Below the pieces are notes generated by a model that saw nothing but the letters and a program-made list of their open reading frames with translations, ran no database searches and was not told the DNA's origin. This document shows positions 16,152 to 61,057 of a DNA stretch of 64,000 nt, piece by piece. The DNA is from an uncultured Verrucomicrobiae bacterium (GTDB lineage: Bacteria; Verrucomicrobiota; Verrucomicrobiia; Opitutales; JABDGR01), in assembly GCA_963765205.1 (NCBI GenBank), contig CAVXVB010000009.1:530590-594589 (forward strand), read 5' to 3'. Each line of letters begins with the position of its first letter. Position 1 is the first letter of the stretch. The position numbers and the translations under genes were made by a program.

Positions 16152-16246
16152 CACCGCCAAGACGCGAAGGGCGCGAAGGAATTAATTCTGACAATTCTGT
16201 AATTCTGGCAAAAAACTTTCTTGGCGCGCTTCGCGCCTTTGCGGTG
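16152..16246. repeat. long imperfect hairpin, arms built of CGCGAAGG-type units
   Basis: Left arm 16152-16178 pairs with right arm 16220-16246 at 23 of 27 positions. The 41-nt loop holds AATTCTG x3. It lies between convergent gene ends. Confidence 0.8.
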
Positions 16247-16257
16247 AATCATACCGC

Positions 16258-16680
16258 TCAGCGCCAGCCGCCGCGGATGAAGACGTTGACACCGTTGCGA
16301 TTCTCGTAGTGATGGGGCACCCAGACCGCGCCGGGACGCGGCGGGTAGGCCCAGCGCCCAGCCGCCCAAACCCAGCGGCCATTCCATTCCCACGCGCCGG
16401 GGATCCAGACATAGCCCACGGCGGGCGGGGCGGTGACTACCTCCACCAAGGGCGCGGGTGGGGCCGAATCAACGACGATTTCCGTTCCGACGGGATAGGC
16501 TGGTTGTTCCACCACGACAGGTGGCGGGGGCTGGCGCACGATCACCTCCCGGCGGGGATAGACCACGCAAGCGCCCAATAAAAGCGCGCCTGCCGCCGCC
16601 AGCAACGCAGGCCGTAGCGGGCGGGCGATTAAGGAAAGCTTTTTTGAGCGAGCGAGGAAAGAGGGTGATTGGGCATGCAT
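16258..16680 (-). CDS. YXWGXW-repeat lipoprotein
   Basis: Lipobox LLLGAC. C-terminus is VGYVWIPGAWEWNGRWVWAAGRWAYPPRPGAVWVPHHY. Confidence 0.7.
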   Translation of the reverse strand: MHAQSPSFLARSKKLSLIARPLRPALLAAAGALLLGACVVYPRREVIVRQPPPPVVVEQPAYPVGTEIVVDSAPPAPLVEVVTAPPAVGYVWIPGAWEWNGRWVWAAGRWAYPPRPGAVWVPHHYENRNGVNVFIRGGWR

Positions 16681-16860
16681 GGCGGGCCTCCGGATTTTAG
16701 GGTTTAAGGACAATCGCTGGTAACAACATAGAGACATCTGGCCACATTCGCAAGTTTCCTGGCGTCGCCAATGACAGATTAATTGGGCGTTTTTTACAGG
16801 GAATTCACAAACGAATTCGGACTGTTCGAGCTTTAATGTTTTCCAAAAGAAGTGGTCGGT

Positions 16861-18657
16861 TCACGCCGTCAGCCCGCTGCCGCTGATTTTGAAGCCATAG
16901 ACGTAGTTGCCGACTTTTTGGTCGGGGAGGGTAACATTCAAGCCTTTGGCATCGCGAGTGAAGACCAGCGGGGCGCCGACGCCGATGATTTCCACGCGCT
17001 CGACCTTGCCTGGCGCCGTCGGCGCGCCGTCGGCGAGGGATTTAATGACGAGCTTGCCGTCCGCCGGCCAGTCCATCACGAAGGCATAGAGCGTTTCACC
17101 TTTTTGCATAAAGCGGAAGTCCTGCGCCGTGTATGACGGCGGCGGGGTGTTGCCGCGGCGGCCGCCCACGCCGTTGCCGGCGGCGGGCGCACTGGAGCCT
17201 TCGCCAAAGACCCGCCAAGGGCGGGTGGCGTAAATGCCCTCGTTGTTCCGGTCCATCCAAGTGGTGAAGTCGGCGATGATGGCCAATTCGTCGGCGTCGG
17301 GCTGGCCATGGCCAGGCAGGGGGATGTTGAGCATGAGGTTGCCGTTCTTGCTCGCGTTGTCCACGAGCATGCGGGCGATGTCGCGCGCATTTTTGTAGTC
17401 GTGCTTGGTAAGGTGTTTGATGTCGTAATGCCAGGAACCAATACAAGTGTCCGTTTGCCAAGGCTCGGGGCGGATGGCATTGGCCCCACCGCGTTCAATG
17501 TCCATGACGAGGGCCTGGCTCTGTTGCAGATTCAGCCCTTTGCCCGTCAGCACGCAATCGAGGCGGCCTTTATTAAGCTTTAAATTGTGATTGTAGAAGT
17601 AGGCGGCGATGCGCAGGCCGATGTCCGACATGGGGTAATGGGGCAAGACCGTGTCGTCGAAATAGAGCAGATCCGGATTGTGCTTGTTGATGAGGTCAAT
17701 GATGCGATTAAAGAACTTTTCACTGAATTCTTTGGCCACTGGCGGGGTCGTTCCGCTGGCCGCGCCGCCTCTCCGGCCACCCTGCGGGCTGAGTTCCCAA
17801 TCGTAATTGCCGAGGGTGTGATACTGCGCGTAGTAATCCTGGGGGTCGAGACCTTCCCACCACAAACCCTTGCCGTCGGCCTTGGACATTTGGCCATCGT
17901 AGGGGACCCCTGCATAAGGGCCCATCGTGTCCCCCTTCTGGGAGTCCTCATACCAGCTCCAAGCCCGGTCGCCATGGCTGGAGATGGCGAATTTCAATCC
18001 CGCGGCACGCACGGCTTTTTCCCAGCCGCCCACCAGGCTCTTTTTCGGCCCGATGGCGATGGAGTTCCATGGCTGATAGGTGGAATCGAACATGTCGAAG
18101 TTGTCATGGTGGTGGGCCATGCACATGAAGTATTTGGCGCCGGCGCGTTTGTAGAGGCCGATGAGGTGTTCGGGGTCCCATTTTTCCGCCTTGAACAGCG
18201 GCAGGATGTCCTTGAACCCAAACTTGGAAGGGTGGCCATAGTGCTCGACGTGGAATTTATGGACCGGGTGGTTTTCCTGATAGATATACTGCGCATACCA
18301 GTCGCCCTGTTCGGGCACGCATTGCGGACCCCAATGCGCCCACATGCCGAATTTGGCGTCGCGAAACCAGTCGGGCGCGGATTTATAATTTTGGAGCGAA
18401 TCGAAATTCGGTTGAAAGGGCCCTTCCATCTCGCCAAAACCCGGGGGAGGCACAATCGGCGCCGGAGCGGGCGGCATGGGGCGTGGCACAACGGCCACGG
18501 GAGCGGCCGTGGCCGAGTCGGCGGCGGAGGCGGCAGCCGGAGCCGCGGTGGCGGCCGCATTGGCGGCGGAGAGTTTGGTCAAGAGGCGGGGAGCGGCCAG
18601 GCTGGCAGCGGCTGCGAGGGTGGTTTGCTGAATGAATTTGCGACGATGGAGGGACAT
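16861..18657 (-). CDS. alpha-L-fucosidase (GH29) with Tat-type signal
   Basis: MSLHRRKFIQQTTLAAAA (twin-arginine signal). WFRDAKFGMWAHWGP and YFMCMAHHHDNFDMFDS are GH29 hallmarks. ATG at 18657 chosen. Confidence 0.9.
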   Translation of the reverse strand: MSLHRRKFIQQTTLAAAASLAAPRLLTKLSAANAAATAAPAAASAADSATAAPVAVVPRPMPPAPAPIVPPPGFGEMEGPFQPNFDSLQNYKSAPDWFRDAKFGMWAHWGPQCVPEQGDWYAQYIYQENHPVHKFHVEHYGHPSKFGFKDILPLFKAEKWDPEHLIGLYKRAGAKYFMCMAHHHDNFDMFDSTYQPWNSIAIGPKKSLVGGWEKAVRAAGLKFAISSHGDRAWSWYEDSQKGDTMGPYAGVPYDGQMSKADGKGLWWEGLDPQDYYAQYHTLGNYDWELSPQGGRRGGAASGTTPPVAKEFSEKFFNRIIDLINKHNPDLLYFDDTVLPHYPMSDIGLRIAAYFYNHNLKLNKGRLDCVLTGKGLNLQQSQALVMDIERGGANAIRPEPWQTDTCIGSWHYDIKHLTKHDYKNARDIARMLVDNASKNGNLMLNIPLPGHGQPDADELAIIADFTTWMDRNNEGIYATRPWRVFGEGSSAPAAGNGVGGRRGNTPPPSYTAQDFRFMQKGETLYAFVMDWPADGKLVIKSLADGAPTAPGKVERVEIIGVGAPLVFTRDAKGLNVTLPDQKVGNYVYGFKISGSGLTA

Positions 18658-18689
18658 GGGGGTAGGGGTGGGGGGTGGGGGGATGGGGG
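18658..18689 (+). repeat. G-tract cluster (G5, G4, G6, G6, G5)
   Basis: GGGGGTAGGGGTGGGGGGTGGGGGGATGGGGG abuts the fucosidase start codon. On the mRNA strand it is C-rich. Confidence 0.8.
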
Positions 18690-18904
18690 AATAAACTGGG
18701 TTAAAAATGAGACGGAAGTTTGCAAGTTTCAAATGGAAAAACGAACCACGGTAGCCCGCGCGAAAGATGGCAGGCGTGGGACGCGATCGTGGCAGTATGA
18801 TGATCACAAGAAGAACGACAGGAAGTAATCCAAAAAAGGTTTGCCAATTGACCCCACCCGCAACCCTCACCAATCTCAAAGAACAAAATTTGCTCCGTTT
18901 GGAG

Positions 18905-20297
18905 ATGCCCATGATATCGCTTGAACAGATTAACCTACCTGACTTCGGCAAACCGGCCGCGCTGCCGGCCATCAGCGCCGCAGAGTATGGAGAGCGTCTG
19001 GGCCGGATGATGGAGCGGATGCAAAAGGAAAAGCTCGACGTGGTGGTGATTTACGCGGATCGCGAACATTTCGGCCAACCTGAACTACCTGATCGGGTTC
19101 GACCCGCGATTTGAGGAAGCTTTGCTGCTGTTGGACACGAAAGGTGGGCGGCTCCTGCTCGTGGGAAACGAGTGCATGGGTTGCTTGCCGGAGGCCGCGC
19201 GTGGGTGCCGGGTCAAGTTGTTCCAAGAGTTCAGCCTGATGGGGCAGCCGCGGGATGGGTCGGCGTCGCTGAATATGTTGCTCGCGGATTTCGGCCTCGG
19301 CCGCGGCGTCAGGGTTGGATGCGTGGGATGGAAATTTTTTGCCGGGGCGAACATCGAGCACCCGCGCACAGCCCTTGAAATCCCGAGCTATATCGTGGAT
19401 GCGCTGCGCGCCCTGGTCGGCGATCCGGCCCAGGTGGTCAATGCCAATTCACTTTTGATGTCGGCTGAAAACGGGCTGCGGCTGTTCAACTCAGCGGACC
19501 AGATTGCCCGGTTCGAATATGCGGCGGCGTATGTTTCCACAAGTGTCCGCGAGGCGCTGGCAGCGCTGCGGGTGGGCATCGCGGAAAAGGACGTGGCCCG
19601 CCATATTGACTGCGGCGGGTTGCCGCTGTCCTGCCACCCGATGGTCAGCTTTGGCGAGAAGGCGCGTCGCGGACTTGCTAGCCCTTCAGACCGCCGGGCG
19701 CAATTGGGTGATGCGTTTACGATGGCCTTTGGCATTGAAGGAGCATTGACGGCGCGAGCGGGCGTAATTGCATCCGGGCCAGACGAACTCGGCGCGGAGT
19801 TACGGGATTTCTACCCGCGGTTGGTGGCCAATTATTTCGAAGTGGTCGTGGCCTGGTATGAAGCGATGAAAGTCGGCGCGGTGGCCGGAGACGTGTTCGC
19901 CGCCGTCGAAACAGCCCGCGCGCCCGCGTTGTTTTCATTCGCCCTTAACCCGGGGCACTACATTCACCTCGACGAGTGGGTGCATTCGCCGTTTGCCCGG
20001 GGCAGCCGCGTGGTGTTGCTGTCCGGCATGGCTTTGCAGTCGGACATCATTCCTGTTTCAGCCGGGCCATTCTGCTGCAGCAATGCGGAGGACGGAGTTG
20101 CGCTAGCCGATGAGGTGTTGTGCGCCGAGCTGGCCGCGTGCCATCCCGACTGCTGGCGCAGGATTGCCGCCCGGCGGCAGTTCATGCGCGAAGTGCTGGG
20201 GATCAAGTTACATGACAGCGTGCTGCCCTTGAGCAACACTCCGGCCTGGCTGGCACCGTATGCATTAGCGCCGGGACTGGTGCTGCGGGTGGGCTGA
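18905..20297 (+). pseudogene. M24-family (creatinase/prolidase-fold) peptidase with a +1 frame break
   Basis: ORF 18767..19114 (VVVIYADREH) continues as SANLNYLIGFDPRFEEALLLLDTKGG in the frame of ORF 19122..20297 if one T of TTT 19069-19071 is skipped. Confidence 0.7.
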
Positions 20298-20400
20298 GAC
20301 TGGTTGCGGCGGAGCGTTTTGCCGGCGCAAGCCGGGCCATGGCAAGGAAATTGATTTGTTTAGAATTGGGATTATAGAGATTAAAAATCCAACTCGATTA

Positions 20401-21036
20401 TTATAATGGGCCATCCTTCAAATACCATTTGCCGTTGATTTTGATAAAAGTAACGGGGTCCGCGTTGCCGCCGACCGCAAAGCCCCCATCAGTTGACGGG
20501 ATAATTCCCTGTTTCAAATAAGTGGCTTCGTTGCCCGTGTCGTTAAAAGTCGGGGTCTGGTATTCAAGGGCTTCCCAAGACCGTGCAATCGTGTCGCGAA
20601 GTTGTTGCACAGACTGTTGCATTTCCGAAATCTGGGCACTTCGCTCGTCGTCATCCTGCATTGCTTGATAGAGAACGGGTTCAAATTTGTCCGGCGGGGC
20701 GTAAATTCTATAGGCCTCGGCCTGATTGCCAGCCCGATGCAAACGCGCAACGTCCGCGAGAGAGGTTTTCAAATCCGCCTGAGGGTCTGCTTCAGCAGCC
20801 AAAGTCGGTGTGGCGGCGACTGGCACGGCGTCGGGTTTCGGCATGGGCGGCACAACGGGTGGGGCAATCGTCTGAGGCGCGACATGCTTGGGGGTAGCAT
20901 CAGCCTTACCCAGCGTCGGCGCTTCTGCTGTCCTTTCTGGGGCAGCCACCGTAGGCCAAGTGCCCCACCAGATACCGAGGCAAACGATAACTACGGCAAC
21001 GATGACAGTGACCAAGATGAAGTTTTTCGGCTTCAT
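20401..21036 (-). CDS. membrane-anchored Pro-rich protein, unknown function (paralog of 44456..45080)
   Basis: MKPKNFIL plus a TM segment, a Pro/Ala-rich linker, and a C-terminal domain ending PVTFIKINGKWYLK. Confidence 0.6.
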   Translation of the reverse strand: MKPKNFILVTVIVAVVIVCLGIWWGTWPTVAAPERTAEAPTLGKADATPKHVAPQTIAPPVVPPMPKPDAVPVAATPTLAAEADPQADLKTSLADVARLHRAGNQAEAYRIYAPPDKFEPVLYQAMQDDDERSAQISEMQQSVQQLRDTIARSWEALEYQTPTFNDTGNEATYLKQGIIPSTDGGFAVGGNADPVTFIKINGKWYLKDGPL

Positions 21037-21140
21037 GGGGCCTTTTCTAATCCCTTTTGATTGAGGAACGCAAACACTTCCAAATCTCCGGCGACGTGAG
21101 ATGGCGCCGGGGTTTCGCAGAAAACTTTAAACCACCAGGA

Positions 21141-22043: not shown

Positions 22044-22138
22044 GGGGGTGGTAGGGTAGAGCGGTATGTTCCAAATCAACCGGGCGCGCTGCAATACCTA
22101 TTTTAACGCTCATTCGGCGTAGTCATGGCGCATCTGGA

Positions 22139-22807: not shown

Positions 22808-22810
22808 TCC

Positions 22811-23674
22811 ATGTTCAAACAAATCACCATTCTCGGCCCCGGTCTGCTGGGCGCTTCGCTGCTGCAGGCGGCGAAGGGCCGCGGCCTCTGCGAGCGCACG
22901 GCCGCCTGGTCGCGCCGCGCCGAAACCCGCGCCAAGTGCGAGGGCCAGCCGTGGTGCGACGCTGTTTTTGCCGACGCGGGCAAAGCAGTGGCCAAAGCGG
23001 ACTTTGTGGTTGTTTGCACGCCGGTGGATACCATCGTGCCGCTGCTGGGCGAAATTGCGTCCATGCTGAAGAAAGGCGCGCTGGTGACGGATGTCGGCTC
23101 GACTAAAAGCCTCATTTGCCGGCTGGGCCGCGCCGCGCTGCCGAAAAAAGTCGCGTTCGTCGGCTCGCACCCGATGGCTGGCTCGGAGAAAGGCGGCCTC
23201 GAACACGCTGACCCCGAGCTATTCCAAGGCCGCGCCTGTTTTGTCACCCCGCTGGTGGACACGCCAGCTAAGGACGTGGACCGCGTGACGCGTTTTTGGA
23301 AGGCGCTCGGTATGGAAGTCTCCACCACCACGCCGGAAACGCATGACGAAATCGCCGCGCACCTGAGCCATCTGCCACATTTGCTCGCCGCCGCTTTTTG
23401 TGCCTACCTCGGTACGCGCGACCCGCACTGGATCCATTTCGCCGGGCCGGGCCTGCGCGACACCACGCGCGTCGCCGCCGGCGACCCGGCGCTGTGGAAA
23501 GCCATCGCCCTCGAAAACCGCGAAGAGATTCTGCGCGCCCTCGATGGTTTTCAAAAGGAAGTGGACCACCTGCGCGCCGCCCTGCACAACGCGCAACCAT
23601 TTGCACTCCAGCACCTCCTCGAACGCGGCCGCGACTACCGCGTGCGCCTGCGGCCCCTCGGGGGGAAAGGATGA
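22811..23674 (+). CDS. tyrA: prephenate/arogenate dehydrogenase
   Basis: ITILGPGLLGASL (NAD-binding site) and VGSHPMAGSEKGG. The stop TGA at 23672-23674 lies inside the repeat arm. Confidence 0.9.
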   Translation: MFKQITILGPGLLGASLLQAAKGRGLCERTAAWSRRAETRAKCEGQPWCDAVFADAGKAVAKADFVVVCTPVDTIVPLLGEIASMLKKGALVTDVGSTKSLICRLGRAALPKKVAFVGSHPMAGSEKGGLEHADPELFQGRACFVTPLVDTPAKDVDRVTRFWKALGMEVSTTTPETHDEIAAHLSHLPHLLAAAFCAYLGTRDPHWIHFAGPGLRDTTRVAAGDPALWKAIALENREEILRALDGFQKEVDHLRAALHNAQPFALQHLLERGRDYRVRLRPLGGKG

Positions 23675-23856
23675 AGGATGAGGGATGAAGGATAATAAAG
23701 CCTGCGTTGGCCGCCGCGCCCAACGCACCGCCCGCATTATCATAGAACACAATCGCTGATGATTACGGGAACTTTTCATCCTTCATAATTCATCCTTCAT
23801 CCCTCATCCTTCATCCCTCATCCCTCATCCCTCATCCCTCATCCTTCATCCTTTCC
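23664..23856. repeat. perfect 25-bp inverted repeat plus heptamer tandem array (TCATCCY x11)
   Basis: GGAAAGGATGAAGGATGAGGGATGA (23664-23688) is the exact reverse complement of 23832-23856. The right arm extends as 11 heptads from 23776-23852. Confidence 0.95.
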
Positions 23857-25212: not shown

Positions 25213-25266
25213 ACCCCGCCCAAAATAGGTTTTGACCATCCAGGCTTTTTGCGTAAAGTTGGCTGT

Positions 25267-26419: not shown

Positions 26420-26426
26420 AATAGGG

Positions 26427-26518
26427 GAAAACACGGAGGATACGGACAGAGTGAGCAGTTTGGGTTTCGAGTTTGGAGTTGAACTCCCGCTGGGTTCTCC
26501 TTGTGTTCTGTGGTTTAC
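26427..26518. repeat. degenerate member of the tandem-oligomer hairpin family
   Basis: The left arm has CACGGAGGA/TACGGACAG units. The right arm ends CTGTGGTTTAC. Only about 10 bp can pair (including G-U) and the register is ambiguous. It abuts ATG 26524. Confidence 0.5.
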
Positions 26519-26523: not shown

Positions 26524-27081
26524 ATGTCATCAAATCAGCCTGCCGCTTACGGCCCGGATATCGCGTCTTTGTTAACCGGCGTTGCCCCGGCCCCGCTGGA
26601 CATGGGCCGGCCCGAGGAAAAATTCCGTGCGGCCTTGGCGGCACTCACGCCGGAAGGCATTTTTGCAACCCTACGCAAGCCTGTCCGCGATGCGCGCATG
26701 GCGCGGTGCTGCCTCGCCGGGCTGTGGCTGCGGCATAATTTTTTCGACGAGTCGCACGCGCTTTCGCAGGAAATTGAAACGCCGAGCGGCAGCTTCTGGC
26801 ACGCGATTCTGCACCGCCGCGAGCCGGACTACGGCAATGCCGGCTACTGGTTCCGGCGCGTCGGCGCGCACCCGATTTATCCCGCGCTGAACGCCGCGGC
26901 CATCGCCTCGGGCTGGCCGAAATCGGCGCGGTGGGATCCGTTGGTGTTTGTGAACCAAGTCGAAGAAGCCATCGGCAAAGGGACCGAAAATTCCACCACA
27001 AAACTATGCGTGCAAGTTCAACAACTCGAATGGGAATTATTGTTCGAGTATTGTTGGAAGCAGGCGATCGGCGCGAATTGA
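26524..27081 (+). CDS. conserved hypothetical protein
   Basis: 186 aa from the internal ATG. SFWHAILHRREPDYGNAGYWF is a motif of an uncharacterised family. Confidence 0.5.
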   Translation: MSSNQPAAYGPDIASLLTGVAPAPLDMGRPEEKFRAALAALTPEGIFATLRKPVRDARMARCCLAGLWLRHNFFDESHALSQEIETPSGSFWHAILHRREPDYGNAGYWFRRVGAHPIYPALNAAAIASGWPKSARWDPLVFVNQVEEAIGKGTENSTTKLCVQVQQLEWELLFEYCWKQAIGAN

Positions 27082-27291
27082 TTTGTCGGTTTATGGTGGA
27101 GTTCACCGCCAAGGCGCGGAGAACGCAAAGAAAGATTTTGGCAAGTGGTTTAGCCAATCCATTTTGTGCTGCTCGATAGACATATTTTGCTGGTCATAGC
27201 GGACAAATAGTGTCATATCTCAAAACAACGGGCAAGGAATGTAAATGTTATCTTATTGCCTTTCAATAAGTAACGAAAATACCGGCAAAAT

Positions 27292-31996: not shown

Positions 31997-32312
31997 CGAT
32001 TGTTCCAAGTGTCCAGAATTTAATCGCGCCCAGCCCTGCCTGCTTAACCAATCTGCTGGCCCATTGCCATGACCAAAATACCCACCCCCATCCTCCAAAA
32101 AATCAGGTAATAAGCTATAAGGGCGCGTGGCGCATCGCCGATGAAGCTCGCAAGGCTATTTAAAAAATCGTCACTGTGCAGCTTCTCGGCTACACCACGA
32201 CCGGCGCGAAGCGATGATTGACGCCGGGGCGATGATGGGTAGAGTGAGGCGCGGTGCTTGGAATTCTTCACCAGCGCCTAACCAGGCTTTTCCAAGGGGA
32301 GAAACCGCCCAC

Positions 32313-32387
32313 GCTTCCGTAGTTCAATGGATAGAACACTGGCCTCCGAAGCCGGTGATCTGGGTTCAAGTCCCAGCGGGAGCACCA
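32313..32387 (+). tRNA. tRNA-Arg (anticodon CCG), CCA encoded
   Basis: A cloverleaf can be read: acceptor GCTTCCG/CGGGAGC, anticodon loop CTCCGAA, T-arm CTGGG-TTCAAGT-CCCAG, 3' ACCA. Confidence 0.9.
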
Positions 32388-32499
32388 CTTAAGCCACTGA
32401 CAGTAAAAGGTTTAAGTTTTGAGCGAAGTTAGGTTGCCCAGTTGACATGGCAACCTATCACTGGATTGGATCGGTACAAGCGAGTGGCAATTTTTAGCA

Positions 32500-32865
32500 A
32501 ATAGCGGCAACCATGACAAGGGCCGTGCCACACGCCAAGTTGAAGGCCAGATTCCGGCATCCTGTGCTTGACTGGCGGCCATCAGCTTCTCGGGCCAGTC
32601 TACCCGGGGTTATCCCGAGCACTTGGCACCTACCCATTGGACGCTGCAACCCAAGGTTCCCCCTCCTCCATGGGCTGTCGCTCGGCAACCTGGCTAGCCC
32701 CTGCGGGATTGTCCCGGGTGGGGTTCGCGTGGAACCGGCTGAGCAACGCGACTGGTCAGCGTAGCTAAGCTTGCCGTCCTTTCGCCCAAAGTCAAATGGC
32801 GTCTGCCAGCCAACTCGTAGCGAGGACGAGCCAGGACCCACGTGCAAACGATATTTCAAGTGGCG
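32500..32865 (-). ncRNA. candidate structured non-coding RNA of unknown class
   Basis: No protein-like ORF in any frame. Contains at least five local hairpins and a 9-bp long-range helix (32568-32576 with 32805-32813). That helix is fully paired only on the minus-strand transcript. Boundaries are approximate. Confidence 0.3.
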
Positions 32866-32907
32866 ATTATTTGGGACTTATTAGAAGTTAGAACAAGCTC
32901 AGGCCCG

Positions 32908-32944
32908 CCAACAAAAGCCCCCCGGCCCTTGCGGGCCGGGGGGC
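32908..32944 (-). terminator. intrinsic terminator of the 125-aa minus-strand gene
   Basis: 12-bp GC stem GCCCCCCGGCCC/GGGCCGGGGGGC with a TTGC loop (32917-32944), followed on the minus strand by CTTTTGTTGG. Confidence 0.75.
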
Positions 32945-32971
32945 CATTTGTGTGGCGGAGCCTCCGATCTC

Positions 32972-39368: not shown

Positions 39369-39800
39369 ATGCCCCATCCCGCCGCCCCCAACCGCGCCGC
39401 CTACCGCGCGCTGGCCGCCTACCGCCACGCGCTGCGGCGCTTTTTGCATTTCAGCACGGAGGCGGCCCGCGCGGCGGGCGTGTCCCAGCAACAATACCAG
39501 GTGCTCCTCGCGGTCAAGGCCGCGCCCGGCCGCGCGTTGCTGACCATTGGCGAGCTGGCCGAAATCATGCACGTCCGCCATCACAGTGCCGTGGGCCTAG
39601 TGGACCGCCTCACCCGGCATGGCCGGCTCCGGCGCGTGCGCGACACCGCTGACCGCCGCCGCGTGCGGGTGCGGTTGACCGCGTCCGGTGAAAAAGCCCT
39701 CCGCCGCCTCGCCACCCAACATCGCGACGAACTGCGCCGCCTCGGCCCGCAACTGGTGCGCTCGCTTAAATCCCTCGGGGTGGAGGGAGGGAAGAATTAA
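39369..39800 (+). CDS. MarR-family transcriptional regulator
   Basis: Winged helix: QQYQVLLAVKAAPGRALLTIGELAEIMHVRHHSAVGLVDRL..DRRRVRVRLTASG. Divergent from the ClC gene. Confidence 0.85.
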   Translation: MPHPAAPNRAAYRALAAYRHALRRFLHFSTEAARAAGVSQQQYQVLLAVKAAPGRALLTIGELAEIMHVRHHSAVGLVDRLTRHGRLRRVRDTADRRRVRVRLTASGEKALRRLATQHRDELRRLGPQLVRSLKSLGVEGGKN

Positions 39801-39925
39801 GATTTATGAATTAAGAATTAAGAAGTTAGAAATCTCAGATCTCAAATTTCATATTTGCATTTACTTTCTGTCTATTCACCGGCTCTTCAACTAGAAACTT
39901 AAAAACCAGAAACTAAAAACGTTCA
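39795..39925. repeat. AT-rich spacer of short direct repeats
   Basis: GAATTAAGA x3 (39795-39826) and AGAAACT(T)AAAAAC x2 (39893-39921). Lies between the convergent marR and murA ends. Confidence 0.7.
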
Positions 39926-45361: not shown

Positions 45362-45392
45362 GAGCGTTTTGGCAACGATTTCTCTTCGTCTC

Positions 45393-45536
45393 GGGGAGCG
45401 CGACCGTCCCGGTCGCTGCGGTCGGCGTCTCGCCGACCGCTTTCTTTCAGAAATGGCGGTGCAAAGCACATCACCGACTTTTGAAGATGTCCTCGGCGGG
45501 ACGCCGAGGACGGCGGGCGGGACGCCCGCGCTCCCC
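45393..45536. repeat. cluster of four GC-rich triloop hairpins framed by a 10-nt inverted repeat
   Basis: Stems at 45400-45416 (loop TCC), 45418-45440 (TCT), 45490-45510 (GGA) and 45513-45529 (GGA). The outer GGGGAGCGCG (45393-45402) is complementary to CGCGCTCCCC (45527-45536). Confidence 0.85.
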
Positions 45537-45585
45537 GGGATGAAGAACCGCGCATACTGAAGTCAAAAACAATTTTAAATGGAAA

Positions 45586-45939: not shown

Positions 45940-46357
45940 GCGGTTCCTTGGCGGAAAAGGGCATTCGCGGCGAAAAAGCAAGTGTTTCGTGCGCCGCGGC
46001 GGCGAATTTCAGCGCAGCTAATAACTCCGGGCGCGGGCTATTTCCGGCCTAAATCAGCGTGAATAAGCTTCCTAAATTCATTCCGTTCGCTATGTTCCTG
46101 CTCAGGCCTTCTGCTGTGACCGAGACCTCGCCAGTGTTCCTACTCTGATAATTATATAACAAAGGGAGCTCGCCACCCGGCGGTGGCTGCCACGCCGTAA
46201 ACCGGAAGGCAAAAGCCGCCAGGAGAGCACCCACCTAAGCACCAGAGGTTCAGAACACCTGCTTTTACGGCATAAGTGGAAGGTCATTTTTTTTTGGCGG
46301 GTTGATTGGGCGGGGTGAGGCGGCGCAGGCTGGGCTGTTGCCTTAAAGCCGCAAGAC

Positions 46358-46450
46358 AACCACGGATGACACGGATAGCACGGATGCGTTTCACCAGCAG
46401 AGCTGTGGCTTGGATATTGTCATCCGTGCCATCCGTGTCATCCGTGGTTT
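46358..46450. repeat. 29-bp-stem hairpin built of CACGGATRR units
   Basis: AACCACGGATGACACGGATAGCACGGATG (46358-46386) versus CATCCGTGCCATCCGTGTCATCCGTGGTTT (46421-46450). There is one mismatch, which becomes a G-U pair on the minus-strand transcript. Confidence 0.9.
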
Positions 46451-51344: not shown

Positions 51345-51422
51345 GTCAAGGGGGCGGGCCGCTGGGTTGAGCGCAAGGGGTGAAGCGAGGTTGAACCACG
51401 CGGCGGGAGCAAGGTTGCGGTT

Positions 51423-52220: not shown

Positions 52221-52354
52221 CAAAGAGGGCAAGGAAGATGGAAAATGGAAAATGGAAAAACCGGAATAGAGAAAGGGGTAGGAATGGGATATACCGCCGA
52301 GTAACTTCTTGCGATAAAAATTGCACCAGGGCGGATGACTCGCAAAATGCGGCC

Positions 52355-53281: not shown

Positions 53282-53306
53282 CGTTCGCTGTATTTGGACC
53301 AACAAA

Positions 53307-53339
53307 ACGCCGCCGGTTTCGCGGGGAAACCGGCGGCGT
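53307..53339. terminator. 14-bp perfect GC hairpin between convergent genes
   Basis: ACGCCGCCGGTTTC-GCGGG-GAAACCGGCGGCGT. No clear U-tract on either side. Confidence 0.55.
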
Positions 53340-53363
53340 GAAAGATCTCGTCGGGAACGATGC

Positions 53364-54296: not shown

Positions 54297-54501
54297 CTGT
54301 GGAGTTGGATAGGGGGAACAAGTAACCGAAGAAAAATGGCCGGATGCCGGACGGCAAGGGGCGCGAAACGAGGCACAATGACAAGCCGGTGAGGCTTTGC
54401 CAAGCGCAAATACGCAAGGGGTATTCGAGAGGGTGGGGCGGACCTCTTTGAACTAACACCCCCATCACTCGGGTGAATGCAGCAACCGCTTAATGTTCAA
54501 T

Positions 54502-54590
54502 GCTCAACGTTGAACGCTCAATAAAGCAGCCCCATGGGGTGACGGGACGAAAATCTTGGTCGCCTTCAACTTGAGCGTTGAGCGTTAAAC
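54502..54590. repeat. hairpin built of TTGAGCG/TTGAACG units
   Basis: 54502-54521 pairs with 54571-54590: 9 bp, one mismatch, then 6 bp including one G-U. More degenerate units lie on both sides (54487-54610). Confidence 0.75.
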
Positions 54591-54613
54591 GTTAAAAGTT
54601 GAGCGTTAGGAGA

Positions 54614-56125
54614 TTAGGCTGCCGGCGCTGGCGGCTTGTAGCCCCAGAGATGGCGGTTCTTGATGATGGCCGCGGCTTGCGCCGGCACCAGCTTCTCCCA
54701 AGCCGGGTCGCCGTCCGCGATTTTTTTAAGCACGTCGCGGGAGAAGATGCCGAGGTTTTCCGCATGAAAGCCCAGCAGGGGCTCGATGTAATGGTTTTCC
54801 AGCAGGTAGGCGTAGAGGTTGCGCAGGTGAATTTTGACCTGCAGGTTTTGCGCGGTGATCAGCCACTCGCCCGGCATGGGCAACGCTTGGGGCGCCGGCT
54901 CGGTGTGGGTGGCCCCGGCGACTTTGCCGGCCTGCTCGGCGAGGTAGCGGTTGTAGCCCGAACCCTTCATCGGGTAAACATACATCCGGGTGTTCTCCTT
55001 GAACAGGCGCCCGCATGCTTCCAGGATGCCTCCGGCCAAATTATCATAATATTGCTCGTTGAAAACTTCGAGGAGATTATTGATCCCCAGCGAGATGCCG
55101 ACCATCTTTTTCGTGAAGCGCCGGAAATAATCCGTCAACCGGAAAAATTCGGAGTAATTCGAGATGAGCACATGGTAGCCCAGCGCCGCCAGCGTGTCCA
55201 CCCGGGCCAGAAAATCGTCGAGGTTCAGCTCCCCGCCGGCCAAAAGGTTGTGGATGGTGATTTCGAGGAGAACGACGACCTCCTCGCCGCGGTTCTTTTC
55301 CTCCTGCAGGAATTGCGCGCCGGCCGCCTCCAGCATGTCAATGTTCACATGGGTCACGGGTCGAAATGAGCCGCGCTCGACCAGGATCGCCTTTTTGTAG
55401 AGGATTTCCGAGGGCTGCAGCACATGCCGGTCCGGCGAATACATCACCGCGTTCGTCAGCCCATGCTGCACGAGGTGCAGGCAGATGGCACGGTTTTCAA
55501 TGTGGGCGAAGTCCGGGCCGTTGAATTCAATCATGTCCACTTCGATGCGCTGGATACCGAGGCTGTCGGCCAGCGAGAGGATGAATTCCTCGATGTCGGT
55601 GTGCAGCAACGCCGCGCCGTAGACGAGGTTCACGCCGATGATGCCGAGGGCGTCCTGCTGGGCGACGGGCGTCTTGTCCCACATCCGCACATGGATGATG
55701 ATGTCGTTGGGCGGCCCATGGGGGCGCAATTGCAGACGCATGCCCATCCAGCCGTGGCAGTCGCCGGTGCCGCGGAAACTGGCGGCGGCGACGGTGTTGG
55801 CGTAAACGAAGAAGGTCGTGCGGTCGCCGCGCGCCTGGCCCAGCCGCTCCGTCAAGAGTTGGTATTCGTGGTCGAGCATCTGCACTAGGCGCTCGCGGGA
55901 GACGTAGCGGTGCGCCTTGCCATAAATGTCGTCGCTGAACTTCATGTCGTAGGCCGACATGCTTTTGGCGATGGTGCCGGCCGCGCCGCCGGCCTGGAAA
56001 AAGTGCCGCGCCACCTCCTGCCCCGCGCCGATTTCGGCAAACGTGCCATAAATCTCGTCGTCGAGATTGATGGCCAGGGCTTTTTGGTTGGTCGAAAGTT
56101 TATCGCGTTGGGAAGATTCAGACAT
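54614..56125 (-). CDS. conserved protein of unknown function
   Basis: 503 aa from ATG 56125. The N-terminal block is IYGTFAEIGAGQEVARHFFQAGGAAGTIAKSMSAYDMKFSDDIYG. I cannot assign a family. Confidence 0.55.
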   Translation of the reverse strand: MSESSQRDKLSTNQKALAINLDDEIYGTFAEIGAGQEVARHFFQAGGAAGTIAKSMSAYDMKFSDDIYGKAHRYVSRERLVQMLDHEYQLLTERLGQARGDRTTFFVYANTVAAASFRGTGDCHGWMGMRLQLRPHGPPNDIIIHVRMWDKTPVAQQDALGIIGVNLVYGAALLHTDIEEFILSLADSLGIQRIEVDMIEFNGPDFAHIENRAICLHLVQHGLTNAVMYSPDRHVLQPSEILYKKAILVERGSFRPVTHVNIDMLEAAGAQFLQEEKNRGEEVVVLLEITIHNLLAGGELNLDDFLARVDTLAALGYHVLISNYSEFFRLTDYFRRFTKKMVGISLGINNLLEVFNEQYYDNLAGGILEACGRLFKENTRMYVYPMKGSGYNRYLAEQAGKVAGATHTEPAPQALPMPGEWLITAQNLQVKIHLRNLYAYLLENHYIEPLLGFHAENLGIFSRDVLKKIADGDPAWEKLVPAQAAAIIKNRHLWGYKPPAPAA

Positions 56126-56387
56126 GGAGGGAGGGGGGGCAGAGCCGGGCACTATACAGCAAAAACAGTGCCCCAACAGCGTAAACCGCGAGGACCGGAG
56201 GAACTCAATTATATTCTTCGTCAAAATTCCGTTACTTTAGGCCGACGGCCGGTGTCTCCCATCATGTAACCTCCCACTCGTCCGCTGCCGGCCGCCGTGC
56301 ATCTCCCGTCTCCTGACTTCTAGCTTCTTCTCTCCCCCCGATATCCCCCTTGCAGTTTGAGCCCTTCCCACTACACTACCTTCCCTC

Positions 56388-58253: not shown

Positions 58254-58371
58254 GTTGGGGGTGGTCGGCGGAATCCGCGGGATGCTTTGGTTGCGTTAAA
58301 GGAGAAAATACTTGTTGGCCACCGGGTTGATGCATATCACCCCATTAGGGATACCCTCAACACCCGCTCCC

Positions 58372-59538
58372 ATGCCCAAGCCCTTCTTCTCCGGCTTCCG
58401 CTCCGCTGCCTGGGTAATCTTCGTTGTGTCGGCCTATTTTTGTCTCCCGGCATTGGGCGTAACCATCTCGTCCTCCGTCGCTCCTGCCGCCGCCACTTCT
58501 GCCGCCCCTGCCCCGGTCGCGCCCGGCCCGGTCTCATCGGAGCGCTATCAGGTCAACCTGAGCCCGCCATTTAAGGTTGGGCAAAAATTCAGCCTCGCGG
58601 CCAATGTGACCAGTAAAATGCAGATGCACATGGCCATCACCTTGTTGGGCGTCCCCACTCTGGGCCCCAGCAAAAGCGAGGCGAGTTCCGTCCAACTTGA
58701 GGCGGAAGGCGAAGTCCTCGCGATTTTTCCCAATGGCAGCCCCCAAAAAATCTCATTGACGCTGAAAAGCCTGGCCGCCACCAAAGATGCCAAACCCGTT
58801 CCCCACCTCCCCACGGCCGGCGCGGTCATCGTGGCCGAGGCGCTTCCGCCAGAGGAAAAGTCCACCCGGGCGGTTGCACCCGCCACCAATCCCCCGGCCG
58901 AAAACCCGCCCGCCAGCAAAAAACCAGCGGAAACTCCCGCCTCCAAGAACAACGGGGGCAAGGACCCGCCCAGCCCTGGTCTGTTCAGTGGTCTCCAAGC
59001 GGGTTCGCCCCGCGTCGCCCTCACGATTGATGGCACGCCCGCCAGCGACGATCTGACGTCTTTGCTGAAAAACTGTCTTGGTCTGGGCGATGGAAGCCAC
59101 ACCCGCCAGGACACGTTTGGCCCGGCCGCCCCGGTGGGGGTGAACGCAACCTGGTCGGCGAACACCACCCTGGTGGTTTCCGACCTGAAAAAATCCCTGG
59201 GCGGCTCCCCGAGCGCCAAAAGCACGGTAAAATTGGACAGTATTAATGGTGCCGGCGCCGGCCAGGTGGCCACGGTCTCCGGCAATTATTCCATAGACAT
59301 GGGAAAAATCGACCCGAAGTTGATCCCCGACCTGCCCCCGGACGTGCCACTTGATTTGACTGTTTCTGTCTTGGATGAATTGTCCCTCTCCGTTCCCGCG
59401 ACCACCAGTTCTGGCACGGCTCAAACCAACTCGACCATGACCATGACGCTCGAAGCCCGCCTCACCAAATTCGGTTTTGGCATCAAGGCCACCGGCGCCG
59501 GCGAAGAGCAAAGCACCGCCACCTTCACCTTTCATTGA
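58372..59538 (+). CDS. secreted hypothetical protein
   Basis: Signal-like N-terminus and a Pro/Ala-rich middle. No motif recognised. Confidence 0.5.
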   Translation: MPKPFFSGFRSAAWVIFVVSAYFCLPALGVTISSSVAPAAATSAAPAPVAPGPVSSERYQVNLSPPFKVGQKFSLAANVTSKMQMHMAITLLGVPTLGPSKSEASSVQLEAEGEVLAIFPNGSPQKISLTLKSLAATKDAKPVPHLPTAGAVIVAEALPPEEKSTRAVAPATNPPAENPPASKKPAETPASKNNGGKDPPSPGLFSGLQAGSPRVALTIDGTPASDDLTSLLKNCLGLGDGSHTRQDTFGPAAPVGVNATWSANTTLVVSDLKKSLGGSPSAKSTVKLDSINGAGAGQVATVSGNYSIDMGKIDPKLIPDLPPDVPLDLTVSVLDELSLSVPATTSSGTAQTNSTMTMTLEARLTKFGFGIKATGAGEEQSTATFTFH

Positions 59539-59710
59539 TGGGCTAACGCGCTGTTGCGCCAGCGGAACGGTGGCTTGTGCCGCTTGAGGCAGAAATTTTT
59601 GCAGTGCGAAATAAGCACCTCCGCCGCGTTACATTTCCGTTTCCGTCGCGTTTCAGGCTTCCCAAAACGCGAATACCGCCTAAAGTGAGCGCGCTTATCT
59701 GCATTTTTCC

Positions 59711-60928
59711 ATGAGCAAAAAAAGCGTCAAAACCACGGACAACCGCGGCAAGGTCGTCATCATCGGCGCGGGCGGCGTCGGGGGGGTGGTCGCGCACAAA
59801 TGCGCGCAGGCTGCCGAGCATTTCCCGGACATGGTCCTCGCCTCGCGCACGCTCGCCAAGTGCCAGGCCATCGCCGCGCAACTGCCGCGCCCCATCCGCA
59901 CCGCCGCGCTGGACGCCGACGACGTGCCGGCGCTCACCCAATTCCTGAAAAAGGAAAAGCCCTTCCTCGTCATCAATGTCGCGCTGCCCTACCAGGATTT
60001 ACCGATTATGGACGCCTGCCTGGCCGCGGGCGTGCATTACCTCGACACCGCCAATTACGAGCCGCCCGACGTCGCCAAATTCGAATACAAATGGCAATGG
60101 GCCTACCAGCAGAAATTCCTCAAGGCCGGGCTGATGGCGCTGCTCGGCTCCGGCTTCGACCCGGGCGTCACGAATGTTTTTTGCGCCTACGCGCAAAAAA
60201 AACTTTTCGACCACATCGAGCAGATTGACATCCTCGACGCGAACGCCGGCGACCACGGCCTGCCCTTTGCCACCAACTTCAATCCCGAAATCAACCTGCG
60301 CGAAGTCTCCGCGCGCGGGCGTTATTTCGAGCACGGCGAATGGGTCGAGACCGAGCCGCTCTCCTGGGGGCGCACGTTCGACTTTCCTGTCCTCGGCCCG
60401 AAGAAGCTCTACCTGCTTTACCACGAGGAATTGGAATCGCTCGCCAAAAACATCTCCGGCGTCAAGCGCCTGCGCTTTTGGATGACCTTTTCGGACAACT
60501 ACCTCAACCACATGCGCGCGCTGCAAAATGTCGGAATGCTCGGCATCGCGCCCGTCGAGCACCAGGGCAAACAGATCATCCCGATTCAATTCCTGAAAAC
60601 GTTGCTGCCCGACCCGGCTTCGCTCGGCCCGCGCACAAAAGGCAAGACGAACATCGGTTGCCTGGTCGAGGGCGTGAAGAATGGGAAAAAACGCCGTGTG
60701 TATATCTATAACGTCTGCGACCACCAGGAATGTTACCGCGAGGTGCAATCGCAGGCCATCAGTTACACGACCGGCGTGCCCGCGGTGGTCGGCGCAATCA
60801 TGATGACCTCCAGCGCGTGGCTCAAACCCGGCGTGTGGAACATGGAGCAACTCGACCCCGAGCCATTCCTCGCCGAACTCGCCCGCCGCGGCCTGCCGTG
60901 GAATGTGCTGGAATTGCCGGCGGAATAA
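59711..60928 (+). CDS. carboxynorspermidine/carboxyspermidine dehydrogenase (saccharopine dehydrogenase family)
   Basis: VVIIGAGGVGGVVAHK, INVALPYQDL, DTANYEPPD..FEYKWQWAY, GSGFDPGVTNVF and FATNFNPEINLRE. Confidence 0.9.
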   Translation: MSKKSVKTTDNRGKVVIIGAGGVGGVVAHKCAQAAEHFPDMVLASRTLAKCQAIAAQLPRPIRTAALDADDVPALTQFLKKEKPFLVINVALPYQDLPIMDACLAAGVHYLDTANYEPPDVAKFEYKWQWAYQQKFLKAGLMALLGSGFDPGVTNVFCAYAQKKLFDHIEQIDILDANAGDHGLPFATNFNPEINLREVSARGRYFEHGEWVETEPLSWGRTFDFPVLGPKKLYLLYHEELESLAKNISGVKRLRFWMTFSDNYLNHMRALQNVGMLGIAPVEHQGKQIIPIQFLKTLLPDPASLGPRTKGKTNIGCLVEGVKNGKKRRVYIYNVCDHQECYREVQSQAISYTTGVPAVVGAIMMTSSAWLKPGVWNMEQLDPEPFLAELARRGLPWNVLELPAE

Positions 60929-60940
60929 TAGATGGTTTAA

Positions 60941-61010
60941 CCACAAAAAACGCAAAAGACACAAAACGGGAACAGATTGGATTCCTTTGCGTCTCTTATG
61001 TTTTTTGTGG
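60941..61010. repeat. hairpin built of A-rich units (ACAAAA / ACGCAAAAG)
   Basis: CCACAAAAAAC (60941-60951) pairs perfectly with GTTTTTTGTGG (61000-61010), and the arms extend imperfectly inward. Followed by TGAATC. Confidence 0.8.
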
Positions 61011-61057
61011 TGAATCTTATTCTTGCCAAAATCACCGCGTTGAACGAGAATTTGCCC

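Follow-up and report, generated by a model that had tools for sequence, protein, structure and literature searches.

Intergenic hairpins of an uncultured Opitutales bacterium as candidate inverted doublets of strand-specific tandem-array modules

Intercistronic RNase III hairpins in the early mRNA of phage T7 leave stems that protect 3′ ends, and they can increase translation downstream. In cyanobacteria, STRR heptamer arrays form intergenic hairpins (hupS-hupL and upstream of hoxW), for which roles in transcript stability or translational coupling have been proposed (PMC2670836). The hmw 5′ untranslated region of Haemophilus influenzae carries (ATCTTTC)n, which pairs with a G-rich arm; RNase III cleaves the resulting long hairpin (PMC12721329). 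REPINs are doublets of REP sequences that form hairpins; each REP unit is a short GTAG-headed palindrome, and the units are linked to a RAYT gene (PMC3116915). Direct repeats of the heptamer TAACTGA occur in Beggiatoaceae, cyanobacteria, and Bacteroidetes, with a patchy distribution that suggests transfer and one indirect repeat among 170 sets (PMC4679880). We describe intergenic hairpins in a 64,000-nucleotide stretch of an uncultured Verrucomicrobiae genome (the window; contig CAVXVB010000009.1, positions 530,590 to 594,589) and compare them with related genomes and phage contigs.

Six hairpin sites had been proposed in a sequence-only reading of the window, and all six were found. Arms of 29 to 33 nt with 83 to 97% complementarity occur at 16149-16249, 23664-23856, 46358-46449, and 60937-61014, and arms of 35 to 38 nt with 74% complementarity at 54484-54615; TRF confirmed 7- to 9-nt units in tandem. 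An ungapped inverted-repeat scan of the entire window, a check proposed with the claim, returned 7 matches versus 0.95 in block shuffles, with 7/7 in non-coding DNA (15.7% of the window). RNA folding, also proposed, gave z-scores of −3.9 to −10.5 at five sites and only −0.7 at 26427-26518; the inverted repeats stand far above chance at five sites and are weak at the sixth. As claimed, the hairpins lie at gene ends or starts (edges −11 to +14 nt from these), and the window copies are, 6/6, downstream of some 3′ end, 6S RNA among these. Two copies had been said to touch a start codon; one abuts the GTG of aroA (23856) and the other ends 5 nt from an ATG (26518). The end motifs are real, with GTGGTTTA present 7 times in the window versus 0.84 expected (8-fold over-represented) and GYGGTGAATC at 16241 and 61007. 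The hairpins matched no family in Rfam, and when the folding of the two strands was compared, neither was systematically better. Canonical terminators were rejected as an identity for the hairpins (stems, 25 to 33 bp; loops, 20 to 133 nt; no U-tract at the stems; some in divergent regions); a canonical GC-stem/T-run terminator is found elsewhere in the window (53307-53339).

Hairpin W1 (16149..16249; like the other five, given no strand), detected by the inverted-repeat scan and by folding, consists of two CGCRAAG-family arrays (9-nt period) arranged as an inverted doublet. Its arms (16149-16181 and 16217-16249, the right end being GCGGTGAATC) lie between two convergent genes, one hicB-like (+) and one hypothetical (−), and its loop holds a one-armed AATTCTGNN array with a 9-nt period (16183..16207, + strand), whose unit also builds the arms of hairpin 20688-20821 in L005. 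Hairpin W2 (23664..23856; z = −8.3) occupies the tyrA-aroA spacer and consists of heptamer arrays, with GGATGAR ×4 on the left (23664-23693), overlapping the tyrA stop codon, YTCATCC ×11 on the right (23775-23856), and two small GC-rich hairpins within the loop. Hairpin W3 (26427..26518), of the CACGGA(T/G) family and ending in GTGGTTTA, has arms ~75 to 80% identical to those of W4 in a comparison by eye, and is therefore taken as a decayed copy. The accessory open reading frame that W3 precedes is followed by a truncated or one-armed class I element (27095..27152, + strand; GTTCACCGCCAAGGCGCGGAGAACGCAAAGAAAG ... GTGGTTTA, the latter match at 27145). In hairpin W4 (46358..46449; z = −7.8 and −10.5), sets of three CACGGAT-NN units form an inverted doublet bounded by AACCAC...GTGGTT. 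It follows the 6S RNA gene at a distance of 70 nt and precedes sulP by 113 nt. Hairpin W5 (54484..54615; z = −4.3), between two (−) strand genes, is made of TTRARCG heptamer arrays, with a left end that starts AACCGC and a small GC-rich hairpin at its apex (~54529-54548). Hairpin W6 (60937..61016; z = −5.1 and −8.3) has CRCAAAA-NN units and ends TTAACCAC...GTGGTGAATC, with saccharopine dehydrogenase on one side and, on the other, two inserted genes, Uma2 + GmrSD. Several window copies adjoin accessory genes (hicAB, g26524, and Uma2 + GmrSD). TRF also found one-armed heptamer arrays of AAGAATT ×4.7 (39792..39824, + strand), with a second array, AACTAAA, nearby (39889-39920), and of GGAAAAT ×3.9 (52233..52259, + strand), the pyrimidine strand of which lies directly 5′ of the (−) strand DAHP-synthase ATG.

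The sequence-only reading saw one architecture with unrelated stem sequences, and this part of it did not hold. Four sites share a 9-nt-period skeleton (head, (GATT)CACC/AACC-RC; units, CRC-RRAK-NN), the hairpins at 26427 and 46358 are one family, 4 or 5 of the 6 sites start with (A)ACCRC, and all unit types are found again in other genomes. The sub-families CACGGAT, CGCRAAG, CACAAAA, GGATGAR, TTRARCG, and AATTCTG recur at non-orthologous loci of related metagenome-assembled genomes: W6 has sister copies at L005 12198 and L021 14894, the W5 heptamer TTRARCG is found at L072 1839, AATTARG arrays related to AAGAATT occur five times in L021, and in L066 a CACGGAT hairpin is nested in the loop of a CGCRAAG hairpin (3134-3296), combining two stem types of the window. 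Unit patterns with 12 to 16 specified bases are recurrent across the clade at non-orthologous loci and rare or absent in non-Verrucomicrobia controls, and low-GC tandem arrays of 6 to 10 nt are denser in the close clade than in controls (~1.7 versus ~0.3 per 10 kb). A shared-sequence family had been dismissed earlier, with a hidden common core named as contrary evidence; conserved heads and recurrent families are what we found, phage contigs included. Judged by sequence, the arrays appear to form a class I of three ~9-nt units (CRC-RRAK-NN) with head (GAT)TCACCRC or (T)TAACCAC and a class II of heptamer arrays (e.g., GGATGAR and TTRARCG); the short skeleton suggests a super-family linking the sub-families. 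A 29-nt profile HMM had no power outside its own training set.

The elements are dynamic at the DNA level. Presence or absence differs among relatives at the W4, W5, W6, and L066 loci; W4 has an orthologue in L056 and is absent from L057, L059, and L060, the W5 hairpin is missing from the corresponding spacer in both L070 and L072, and W6 is missing after the orthologous gene in L070 to L075. The W2 arrays are kept in L006 and L001 with different unit counts and unrelated loops, and across relatives both unit number and unit type change in the tyrA-aroA spacer, even where flanking genes share 89% nucleotide identity. The W4 loop is inverted relative to that of L056 (inverted z = 6.8, 0/500 shuffles; direct z = 0.3), and idiosyncratic spacers of one arm are mirrored in the other. 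Between the CACGGAT stems of the window, its orthologue L056, and the non-orthologous L066, 22/29 pairs are invariant, and the compensatory changes in these three genomes (n = 3) all fall at spacer-dinucleotide or innermost positions. The orthologous window and L056 loops share 67% identity while the CACGGAT cores are invariant; since the loops are homologous, this is an old copy whose arms have nevertheless stayed intact. Arm covariation and unit-number change, which had been suggested as checks, were thus seen in part, the former as three pairs at spacer or innermost positions and the latter at tyrA-aroA, and selection on structure alone, one of the two explanations offered earlier, is not supported, the cores being invariant beside a diverged loop.

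Phage tracing covered the CACGGAT and CGCRAAG families of class I, and both were found in tailed-phage structural operons, mostly as single copies. In the viral collection, ACCACGGATNNCACGGAT had matches in at least 120 stretches (a raw count, not an enrichment), and a correctly spaced third unit followed in at least 84 distinct contexts (at least 158 matches, both hairpin arms counted); this third-unit evidence and that of multi-copy contigs, which are present among the matches listed, is internal to the match set. TCACCGCAAAGGCGCRAAG was found in 11 stretches of phage contigs. In L101, L200, and L206, which encode portal, protease-capsid, and tape-measure proteins, the arrays occupy the gaps between cistrons, in sense orientation. 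Copies that are single and form no hairpin are common among the matches listed and are strand-biased (sense, 20; antisense, 6; binomial, ~0.009), the genes at phage loci having been called with a simple method based on GC3; no orientation signal came from a naive ORF test. Among the matches listed, 8/22 single arrays touch or overlap the preceding stop codon (−11 to 0 nt) and 8/21 end ≤14 nt from the next start, and the stop codon often belongs to the module head (TAA/TGA-CCAC).

Because single copies are mostly sense and run from a stop codon to the next start region, we read the hairpins as inverted doublets of a strand-specific, purine-rich intercistronic tandem-array module, and infer a transcript-level role, with a probability that we put at about even. 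The module families would be common to related Opitutales genomes and tailed phages, usually single and on the coding strand, each module bridging one gene's stop codon and the following gene's ribosome-binding region; from this placement, the basic unit would act in the transcript, perhaps as a recognised leader or spacer supporting expression or stability of the adjoining cistrons. A translational coupler, as suggested by the sequence-only reading, stays alive as an account of the single-copy module. Doublets may arise and turn over in DNA through slippage, inverted duplication, and arm-to-arm exchange, and a paired doublet would show a sense-orientation module to transcripts of either direction. 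It would also fold into a near-perfect RNA duplex of 25 to 33 bp, in which the following gene's start region could be buried. A duplex of this kind should be an RNase III substrate or should shield 3′ ends from 3′-exonucleases.

Mobile selfish DNA, in the form of REPIN- or MITE-like non-autonomous palindromes copied by some nuclease or transposase into new intergenic sites, hairpin loops included, with incidental RNA effects, fits the presence/absence pattern in orthologous spacers, the nesting of one element within another's loop (L066), and the conserved termini equally well. It would also suit the recurrence of families at loci that are not orthologous across several genomes, the multi-copy contigs, the neighboring accessory genes (hicAB, g26524, and Uma2 + GmrSD), and the conserved arms with free loops, as in REPINs (PMC3116915). 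We nonetheless hold this origin to be unlikely, though a serious contender: no target-site duplication was visible at any copy, no transposase or RAYT was found in the window, the arms are tandem arrays rather than small GTAG-headed palindromes, and the homologous window and L056 loops mark an old copy with intact arms. Strand-biased single copies that fit the gap from stop codon to ribosome-binding site, and that sit in phage structural operons, would be unexpected for parasites. Their tie to stop codons and start regions likewise speaks against DNA-level recognition arrays (iteron-like protein sites or oriented signals such as Chi or uptake sequences, often as inverted pairs), as do the strictly non-coding position of the copies, unlike that of Chi or uptake sequences, and the several specificities that several cores in one 64-kb window would require. 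That account is improbable in our judgment, for all that invariant 7-nt cores with fixed 9- to 10-nt spacing (typically three per arm), orientation bias, occurrence in host and phage DNA alike, and the 8-fold excess of GTGGTTTA agree with it.

Local mutation explains part of the pattern. The earlier suggestion of a mechanism generating tandem units and their inverted copies is partly borne out by unit turnover at tyrA-aroA, the flipped loop, and the mirrored spacers, and leaves the origin of the sequences unexplained. Its pure form, gene-end slippage followed by template-switch mirroring with neither dispersal nor function, could draw on the speed of that turnover in unit number and type even at 89% flanking-gene identity, on the coincidence of the GGATGA unit with the tyrA stop region, on the one inverted loop, on arrays that fill spacers right to the coding sequence, and on the heptamer excess tied to polymerase slippage in Mrazek's LSSR work, as recounted in PMC4679880. 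It is very improbable all the same, and contradicted for class I, since it cannot yield 28- to 31-nt arms that are nearly identical between unrelated loci of different genomes and of phages, nor explain invariant cores beside a diverged loop. RNA elements selected for structure only, whether as long intrinsic terminators or as 3′-end stabilisers, that arose independently at each site are largely refuted, with hardly any probability left to them: sequence is conserved beyond pairing, families are common to several genomes and phages, single non-hairpin copies are common, and the sense strand does not fold better. The position of 6/6 window copies downstream of a 3′ end (6S RNA included), the strong folds, and the three compensatory pairs would suit such elements, but dimensions are far from those of terminators, no U-tract is present, canonical terminators coexist in the window, and divergent regions hold 4 of ~17 hairpins in relatives.

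Set against the described systems, the inverted doublets share with the TAACTGA repeats a patchy phylogenetic distribution that suggests transfer; the latter are a single heptamer, almost never inverted, with no 9-nt class and no phage link. The T7 hairpins, which lie between co-directional phage genes, are like ours long and of a common design, but they are not known to be built of tandem units or to be shared with a host chromosome; for the present hairpins, stem length is what suggests processing. W2 resembles the hmw leader in its pyrimidine-rich heptamers (YTCATCC ×11) directly 5′ of a start codon, its purine-rich partner arm, and a unit number that varies among relatives, but the window layout recurs at many loci, at housekeeping genes, and with tandem arrays in both arms. 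With STRR arrays, the likeness extends to intergenic tandem 7-nt units, often pairing with an inverted set, that separate co-transcribed genes or follow 3′ ends; the differences are another phylum (Opitutales, plus phages), another unit vocabulary, a 9-nt-period class, and a conserved head overlapping stop codons, and phage sharing and single-copy strand bias are not described for STRR. REPINs are likewise ~100-nt intergenic hairpins of inverted doublets with conserved arms, variable spacers, and compensatory changes, coexisting with single copies and decayed singlets. Unlike REPINs, the window arms are non-palindromic tandem arrays with no RAYT seen, and the single modules show strand specificity and seem functional, not decayed.

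The window (GC content, 61%) is ordinary chromosome. Its housekeeping genes are asd, trpE, tyrA, aroA, rluA, aspS, murA, sulP, cutA, and those for a sigma-70 factor, DAHP synthase, FKBP, an S49 peptidase, saccharopine dehydrogenase, and a family-B DNA polymerase (6132-8366, minus strand; PF00136/PF03104), which on this Verrucomicrobiota chromosome is probably a repair polymerase of the Pol II type; hicAB, Uma2, and GmrSD are accessory. The single tRNA gene, tRNA-Arg(CCG) (32313-32387), is surrounded by 951 nt without called genes (31997-32947), and 3' of the tRNA there may be an integration scar, an unannotated RNA, or small genes. A 6S (SsrS) RNA gene (46105-46286, plus strand; Rfam, 64.4 bits) ends in a T-run; the gene also lies upstream of sulP in L056, L057, L059-L061, L063, and L064 (loci of relatives), and Rfam scores it at L066 8935-9114. 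A low-GC (~41%) insert (61058-62722) with Uma2 (PF05685) and GmrSD (PF03235/PF07510) nuclease genes is flanked by the saccharopine dehydrogenase gene and the next gene, where relatives have a ferritin or decarboxylase gene. AroA is 81-84% identical to that of three Opitutales metagenome-assembled genomes and ~70% to that of three others. No relative found exceeded ~92% amino acid identity, which precluded an alignment of clean filled and empty sites.

Six intergenic hairpins, W1 (16149-16249), W2 (23664-23856), W3 (26427-26518), W4 (46358-46449), W5 (54484-54615), and W6 (60937-61016), are present with the sequences described in the sequence-only reading. Their arms are indeed tandem units (29-38 nt by repeat search, with units found in both arms by TRF), and their edges lie -11 to +14 nt from gene boundaries, W4 standing just 3' of the 6S RNA gene. 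Five sites fold far better than shuffled sequence (z = -3.9 to -10.5), whereas the sixth, 26427-26518, does not (z = -0.7) and is a decayed copy of the element at 46358. A local minimum free energy scan (RNALfold type) was uninformative because DNA of 61% GC folds everywhere; the whole window was therefore scanned with a simple ungapped inverted-repeat score against local shuffles. This gave 7 hits (0.95 in shuffles), all within the 15.7% called non-coding, two of which are otherwise explained, one (45383-45546) as a GC-rich palindrome and the other (53307-53339) as a textbook terminator. The imperfect palindrome (54-nt arms, 80% complementary, containing GGTCGGCGTCTCGCCGACC) differs in kind from the hairpins; GTAG-headed, GC-rich REP-type palindromes also occur in relatives (L002 4776, L060 10959, L072 2353, L019 15576, and L022 16249). 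Nine non-overlapping low-GC arrays of period 6-10 nt were found in the window, every one non-coding, and the density of such arrays was 1.7 per 10 kb in the clade versus 0.3 in controls.

The stems had been described as unrelated, which does not hold: the same unit families recur at non-orthologous loci of relatives, and units and ends are shared inside the window. The elements at 26427 and 46358 have common CACGGA units and ends (AACAC/AACCAC...GTGGTTTA), GYGGTGAATC is common to those at 16149 and 61007, the 16149 family has a truncated copy at 27095-27152, and GTGGTTTA occurs 7 times in the window (0.84 expected). The clearest case is L066, where a CGCRAAG hairpin of the 16149 family, with arms ~87% identical to those in the window, has within its loop a nested CACGGAT hairpin belonging to the 46358 family. 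The period-9 skeleton (class I) consists of a head, (GATT)CACCRC or (T)TAACCAC, and typically three units per arm, each CRC plus RRAK plus 2-3 variable nt; its sub-families have the cores CACGGAT, CGCRAAG, CACAAAA, CGCAGAT, and CACGAAG. Class-I copies have common terminal inverted repeats, ACCRC...GYGGT, often lengthened to GATTC/GAATC, a result that concerns this class and not the heptamer arrays (class II; GGATGAR, TTRARCG). A profile HMM built from 18 class-I arms found nothing beyond the sequences it was trained on (E ~0.2-3), so the super-family link stands on skeleton and heads rather than on a scored model.

Several further arrays and motifs were noted. Lone GTGGTTTA motifs with no hairpin nearby, at 5367, 8292, 21128, and 50293, may be solo ends or module remnants; those at 21128 and 50293 (the latter as GTGGTTTAA) coincide with a stop codon or lie no more than 5 nt from one. 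A 185-amino-acid hypothetical open reading frame (26524-27081), missing next to rluA in L001 and L006, has decayed class-I elements on both sides (26427-26518 and 27095-27152) and looks like an accessory gene between two modules. L021, from another Opitutales genome, has dominant heptamers of its own: AATTAGG arrays are found at four loci within 21 kb (2006, 6753, 8869, and 14727), and two of these arrays are followed by AAGGCTG arrays (6803 and 14770); each lineage seems to favor its own heptamer vocabulary. Class-I-like arrays (AACCACAAAGAACAC..., ...ATCTGTGTCCATCCGTGGTTT) at L050 6600-6690 and L053 5505-5540 and 11406-11485, in metagenome-assembled genomes labeled Anaerolineales and Bifidobacteriaceae, reflect broader occurrence of the class or contigs assigned to the wrong bin.

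Orthologous sites differ in both presence and content. In the 6S-sulP spacer, the CACGGAT hairpin is found in the window and L056 (SulP, 87% identical) and is missing from L057 and L060 (87-89%) and from L059. The stems of the window and L056 share every CACGGAT core and differ only in spacer dinucleotides, partly in a compensatory manner. Across the window, L056, and L066, 22 of 29 pairs never vary, and the three double changes occur at spacer or innermost positions. The W4 loops of the window and L056 are 67% identical when one is reverse-complemented (inverted z = 6.8, 0/500 shuffles; direct z = 0.3), and this flip is a signature of exchange between arms; inversion of the flanks alongside the loop was not significant in the same comparison (z = 1.2). 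Unit-number variation was found between tyrA and aroA, where the GGATGAR/YTCATCC arrays have 4 + 11 units in the window and ~3 + 3 in L006. These arrays are kept in the window, L006, and L001, among which the loops showed no homology; L003, L004, and L005 carry other heptamers (CNTTTAG and TTGCTGA), and L003 and L004 differ in unit count, yet their flanking genes have 89% nucleotide identity. A two-gene cassette in this spacer (L004 1830-2500) adjoins the heptamer arrays, is missing in the 89%-identical L003, and by eye resembles a VapBC/PIN-type toxin-antitoxin pair. Neither W5 nor W6 has a counterpart in the orthologous spacers of L070-L075, and L064 lacks the nested pair of L066.

The module also occurs in phages. 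A scan of viral contigs for ACCACGGATNNCACGGAT found it in at least 120 stretches, with at least 158 matches (hairpin arms counted separately), with at least 84 distinct contexts having a third unit at the correct spacing, which chance cannot account for; TCACCGCAAAGGCGCRAAG was found in 11 stretches. Arrays in the phage contigs L101, L200, and L206, which code for portal, protease-capsid, and tape-measure proteins, occupy short gaps between co-directional structural genes. A naive orientation test (next open reading frame of ≥60 amino acids; 55 versus 47 among the matches listed) is uninformative in high-GC DNA, so genes were called by GC3. By these calls, 20 single arrays in high-GC phage contigs were sense and 6 antisense (two-sided binomial, ~0.009; among the matches listed). 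Among the matches listed, 8 of 22 single arrays overlap or abut the upstream stop codon (-11 to 0 nt), the stop often being the T(A/G)A of the array's own TAACCAC or TGACCAC, and in 8 of 21 the next start lies within 14 nt of the array end, often with the array directly 5' of AGGAGG. Full hairpins with a GC-rich apex were found in L200, L206, L089, L112, L126, and L131, and no Rfam model fits any phage copy. Two different class-I arrays often stand in tandem in phage contigs (L078 5547-5640; L097, L106, and L107), for example CACGGAT units and then AACCACAGAGGCACGGAGG, TTTAACCGCAGAGAACGCAGAG, or GTTCACCGCGGAGGACGCGGAG, which suggests modular stacking of sister families.

The hairpins are not canonical terminators, termination being one of the structural roles first suggested for them. 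Intrinsic (Rho-independent) terminators have a GC-rich stem of ~5-14 bp, a loop of 3-8 nt, and a U-tract directly 3'. The stems here are 25-33 bp, AT-rich, and purine/pyrimidine segregated, with loops of 20-133 nt, and the 3' flanks (taatgg, aatctt, catacc, and acttgt) have no U-tract. A terminator scan of the window called no long stem a terminator and inside the hairpins found only the small W5 apex hairpin and a weak 5-pair fragment in the W4 left arm; proper T-runs are found at 53307-53339 and at the 6S RNA end. Four of ~17 hairpins in relatives lie in divergent regions (L001 8173, L005 12198, L022 4201, and L072 6211), so hairpins are not confined to 3' ends; nor are they adapted to a single RNA strand, since folding of the antisense strand is in most cases equal or superior.

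Other candidates were also rejected. Rfam matched only the tRNA and 6S RNA convincingly in the window, the hairpins giving nothing or chance miRNA-like hits below threshold. Only the W6 left end (GTTTAAC) fits the attC core (RYYYAAC...GTTRRRY); the outer flanks of W4, L056, and L005 are non-complementary, the neighbors have housekeeping roles, and there is no integrase. CACGGAUG resembles the CsrA site CAGGAUG, yet GGA is missing from most sub-families, and by sequence neither DnaA boxes, nut boxA, three-frame stop devices, nor 16S rRNA tail mimicry fits all families. A rule placing the purine-rich arm 5' of a gene was dropped because a palindrome reads alike on both strands. Uma2 nuclease was rejected as a partner: across all the loci there are only two Uma2 genes, both adjacent to class-I arrays (at the second, L075 11807-12367, directly after the stop, 12356-12475), but they are mutually orthologous.

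We see an about even chance that each hairpin is an inverted doublet of a purine-rich, strand-specific tandem-array module that normally occurs singly, as an element of intercistronic mRNA; the descriptive part of this reading is solid, and the functional part is what we infer. Sense-strand bias, stop-codon anchoring, and use in compact phage operons argue for recognition of sequence in the transcript over selection on structure alone or pure parasitism. Where genes converge (W1; L064 12892), the doublets look like two modules facing each other, one behind each gene; those in co-directional gaps (W2 and W3) place the antisense (pyrimidine) copy 5' of the next start codon. RNase III substrates and protection by 3' stems are general grounds for expecting duplexes of 25-33 bp to be processed or to stabilize the upstream message, as these may. 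Genesis and turnover take place at the DNA level by slippage, inverted duplication, and arm-to-arm exchange. More tentatively, the 9-nt-period module could represent a class of strand-specific intercistronic mRNA elements not described before, with a stop-overlapping head ((T)TAACCAC or GATTCACC) and three CRC-purine units, several sequence variants of which coexist. In Verrucomicrobiota and other bacteria a dedicated host factor, either an RNA-binding protein or the ribosome or RNase machinery, would recognize it; their phages would exploit it, and inverted doublets would be its self-masking or bidirectional form.

The main rival, a selfish origin of the REPIN/MITE kind, we consider unlikely. 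The elements here resemble REPINs in having two repeat units that lie inverted and pair as a hairpin around a spacer of lower conservation, but REP units are short imperfect palindromes with a GTAG-type head, whereas these are direct tandem arrays headed by (GAT)TCACCRC or AACCAC; the hairpins are not REPs in the strict sense, and no RAYT or transposase was found among the window proteins scanned against Pfam. Shared terminal inverted repeats, as in MITEs, are seen in class-I copies; target-site duplication, another MITE feature, was sought at ~15 copies, none of which has a flanking direct repeat, and no insertion sequence lies within the window or the loci of relatives obtained. If the modules were nonetheless selfish DNA, they would be a REPIN-like system built from tandem arrays instead of small palindromes.

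Should the module prove to be a true cis-acting signal, it would give insight into how operon genes are expressed and processed in Verrucomicrobiota, on whose mRNA leaders we know of almost no experimental work, and would mean that Verrucomicrobiota phages copy a signal of their host. The tag ACCACGGAT-NN-CACGGAT, TCACCGCAAAGGCGC might help tie phage contigs to hosts, although its matches range from 32 to 68% GC (among the matches listed) and may come from several lineages. In the doublets there is, moreover, a natural record of bacterial palindrome dynamics (arm-to-arm exchange, loop flipping, and nesting).

A limited literature search found no description of the 9-nt triple-unit class, its sharing with phages, or nesting, and nothing specific on repeat elements of Opitutaceae/Verrucomicrobia. 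Lineage-specific intergenic arrays are themselves established, by Mrazek's LSSR work on 5-11-nt units (as cited in PMC4679880) and by GGGNATC (PMC4692102) and TAACTGA (PMC4679880) repeats, as are STRR hairpins (PMC2670836) and REPINs (PMC3116915). Like STRRs and long simple-sequence repeats, the window arrays are tandem 5-11-nt units, non-coding and lineage enriched. The Haemophilus influenzae hmw leader, a heptamer-array hairpin, is a worked example of such processing or stabilization (PMC12721329); W2 likewise pairs a leader heptamer array with a complementary arm and abuts the GTG of aroA, and where hmw expression depends on repeat number, here only unit-number differences between relatives were seen. 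Relative to these systems, the Opitutales/phage setting appears to be new, as apparently is a 9-nt triple-unit class with a stop-codon head, coexisting cores, nesting, and a single-versus-doublet relation.
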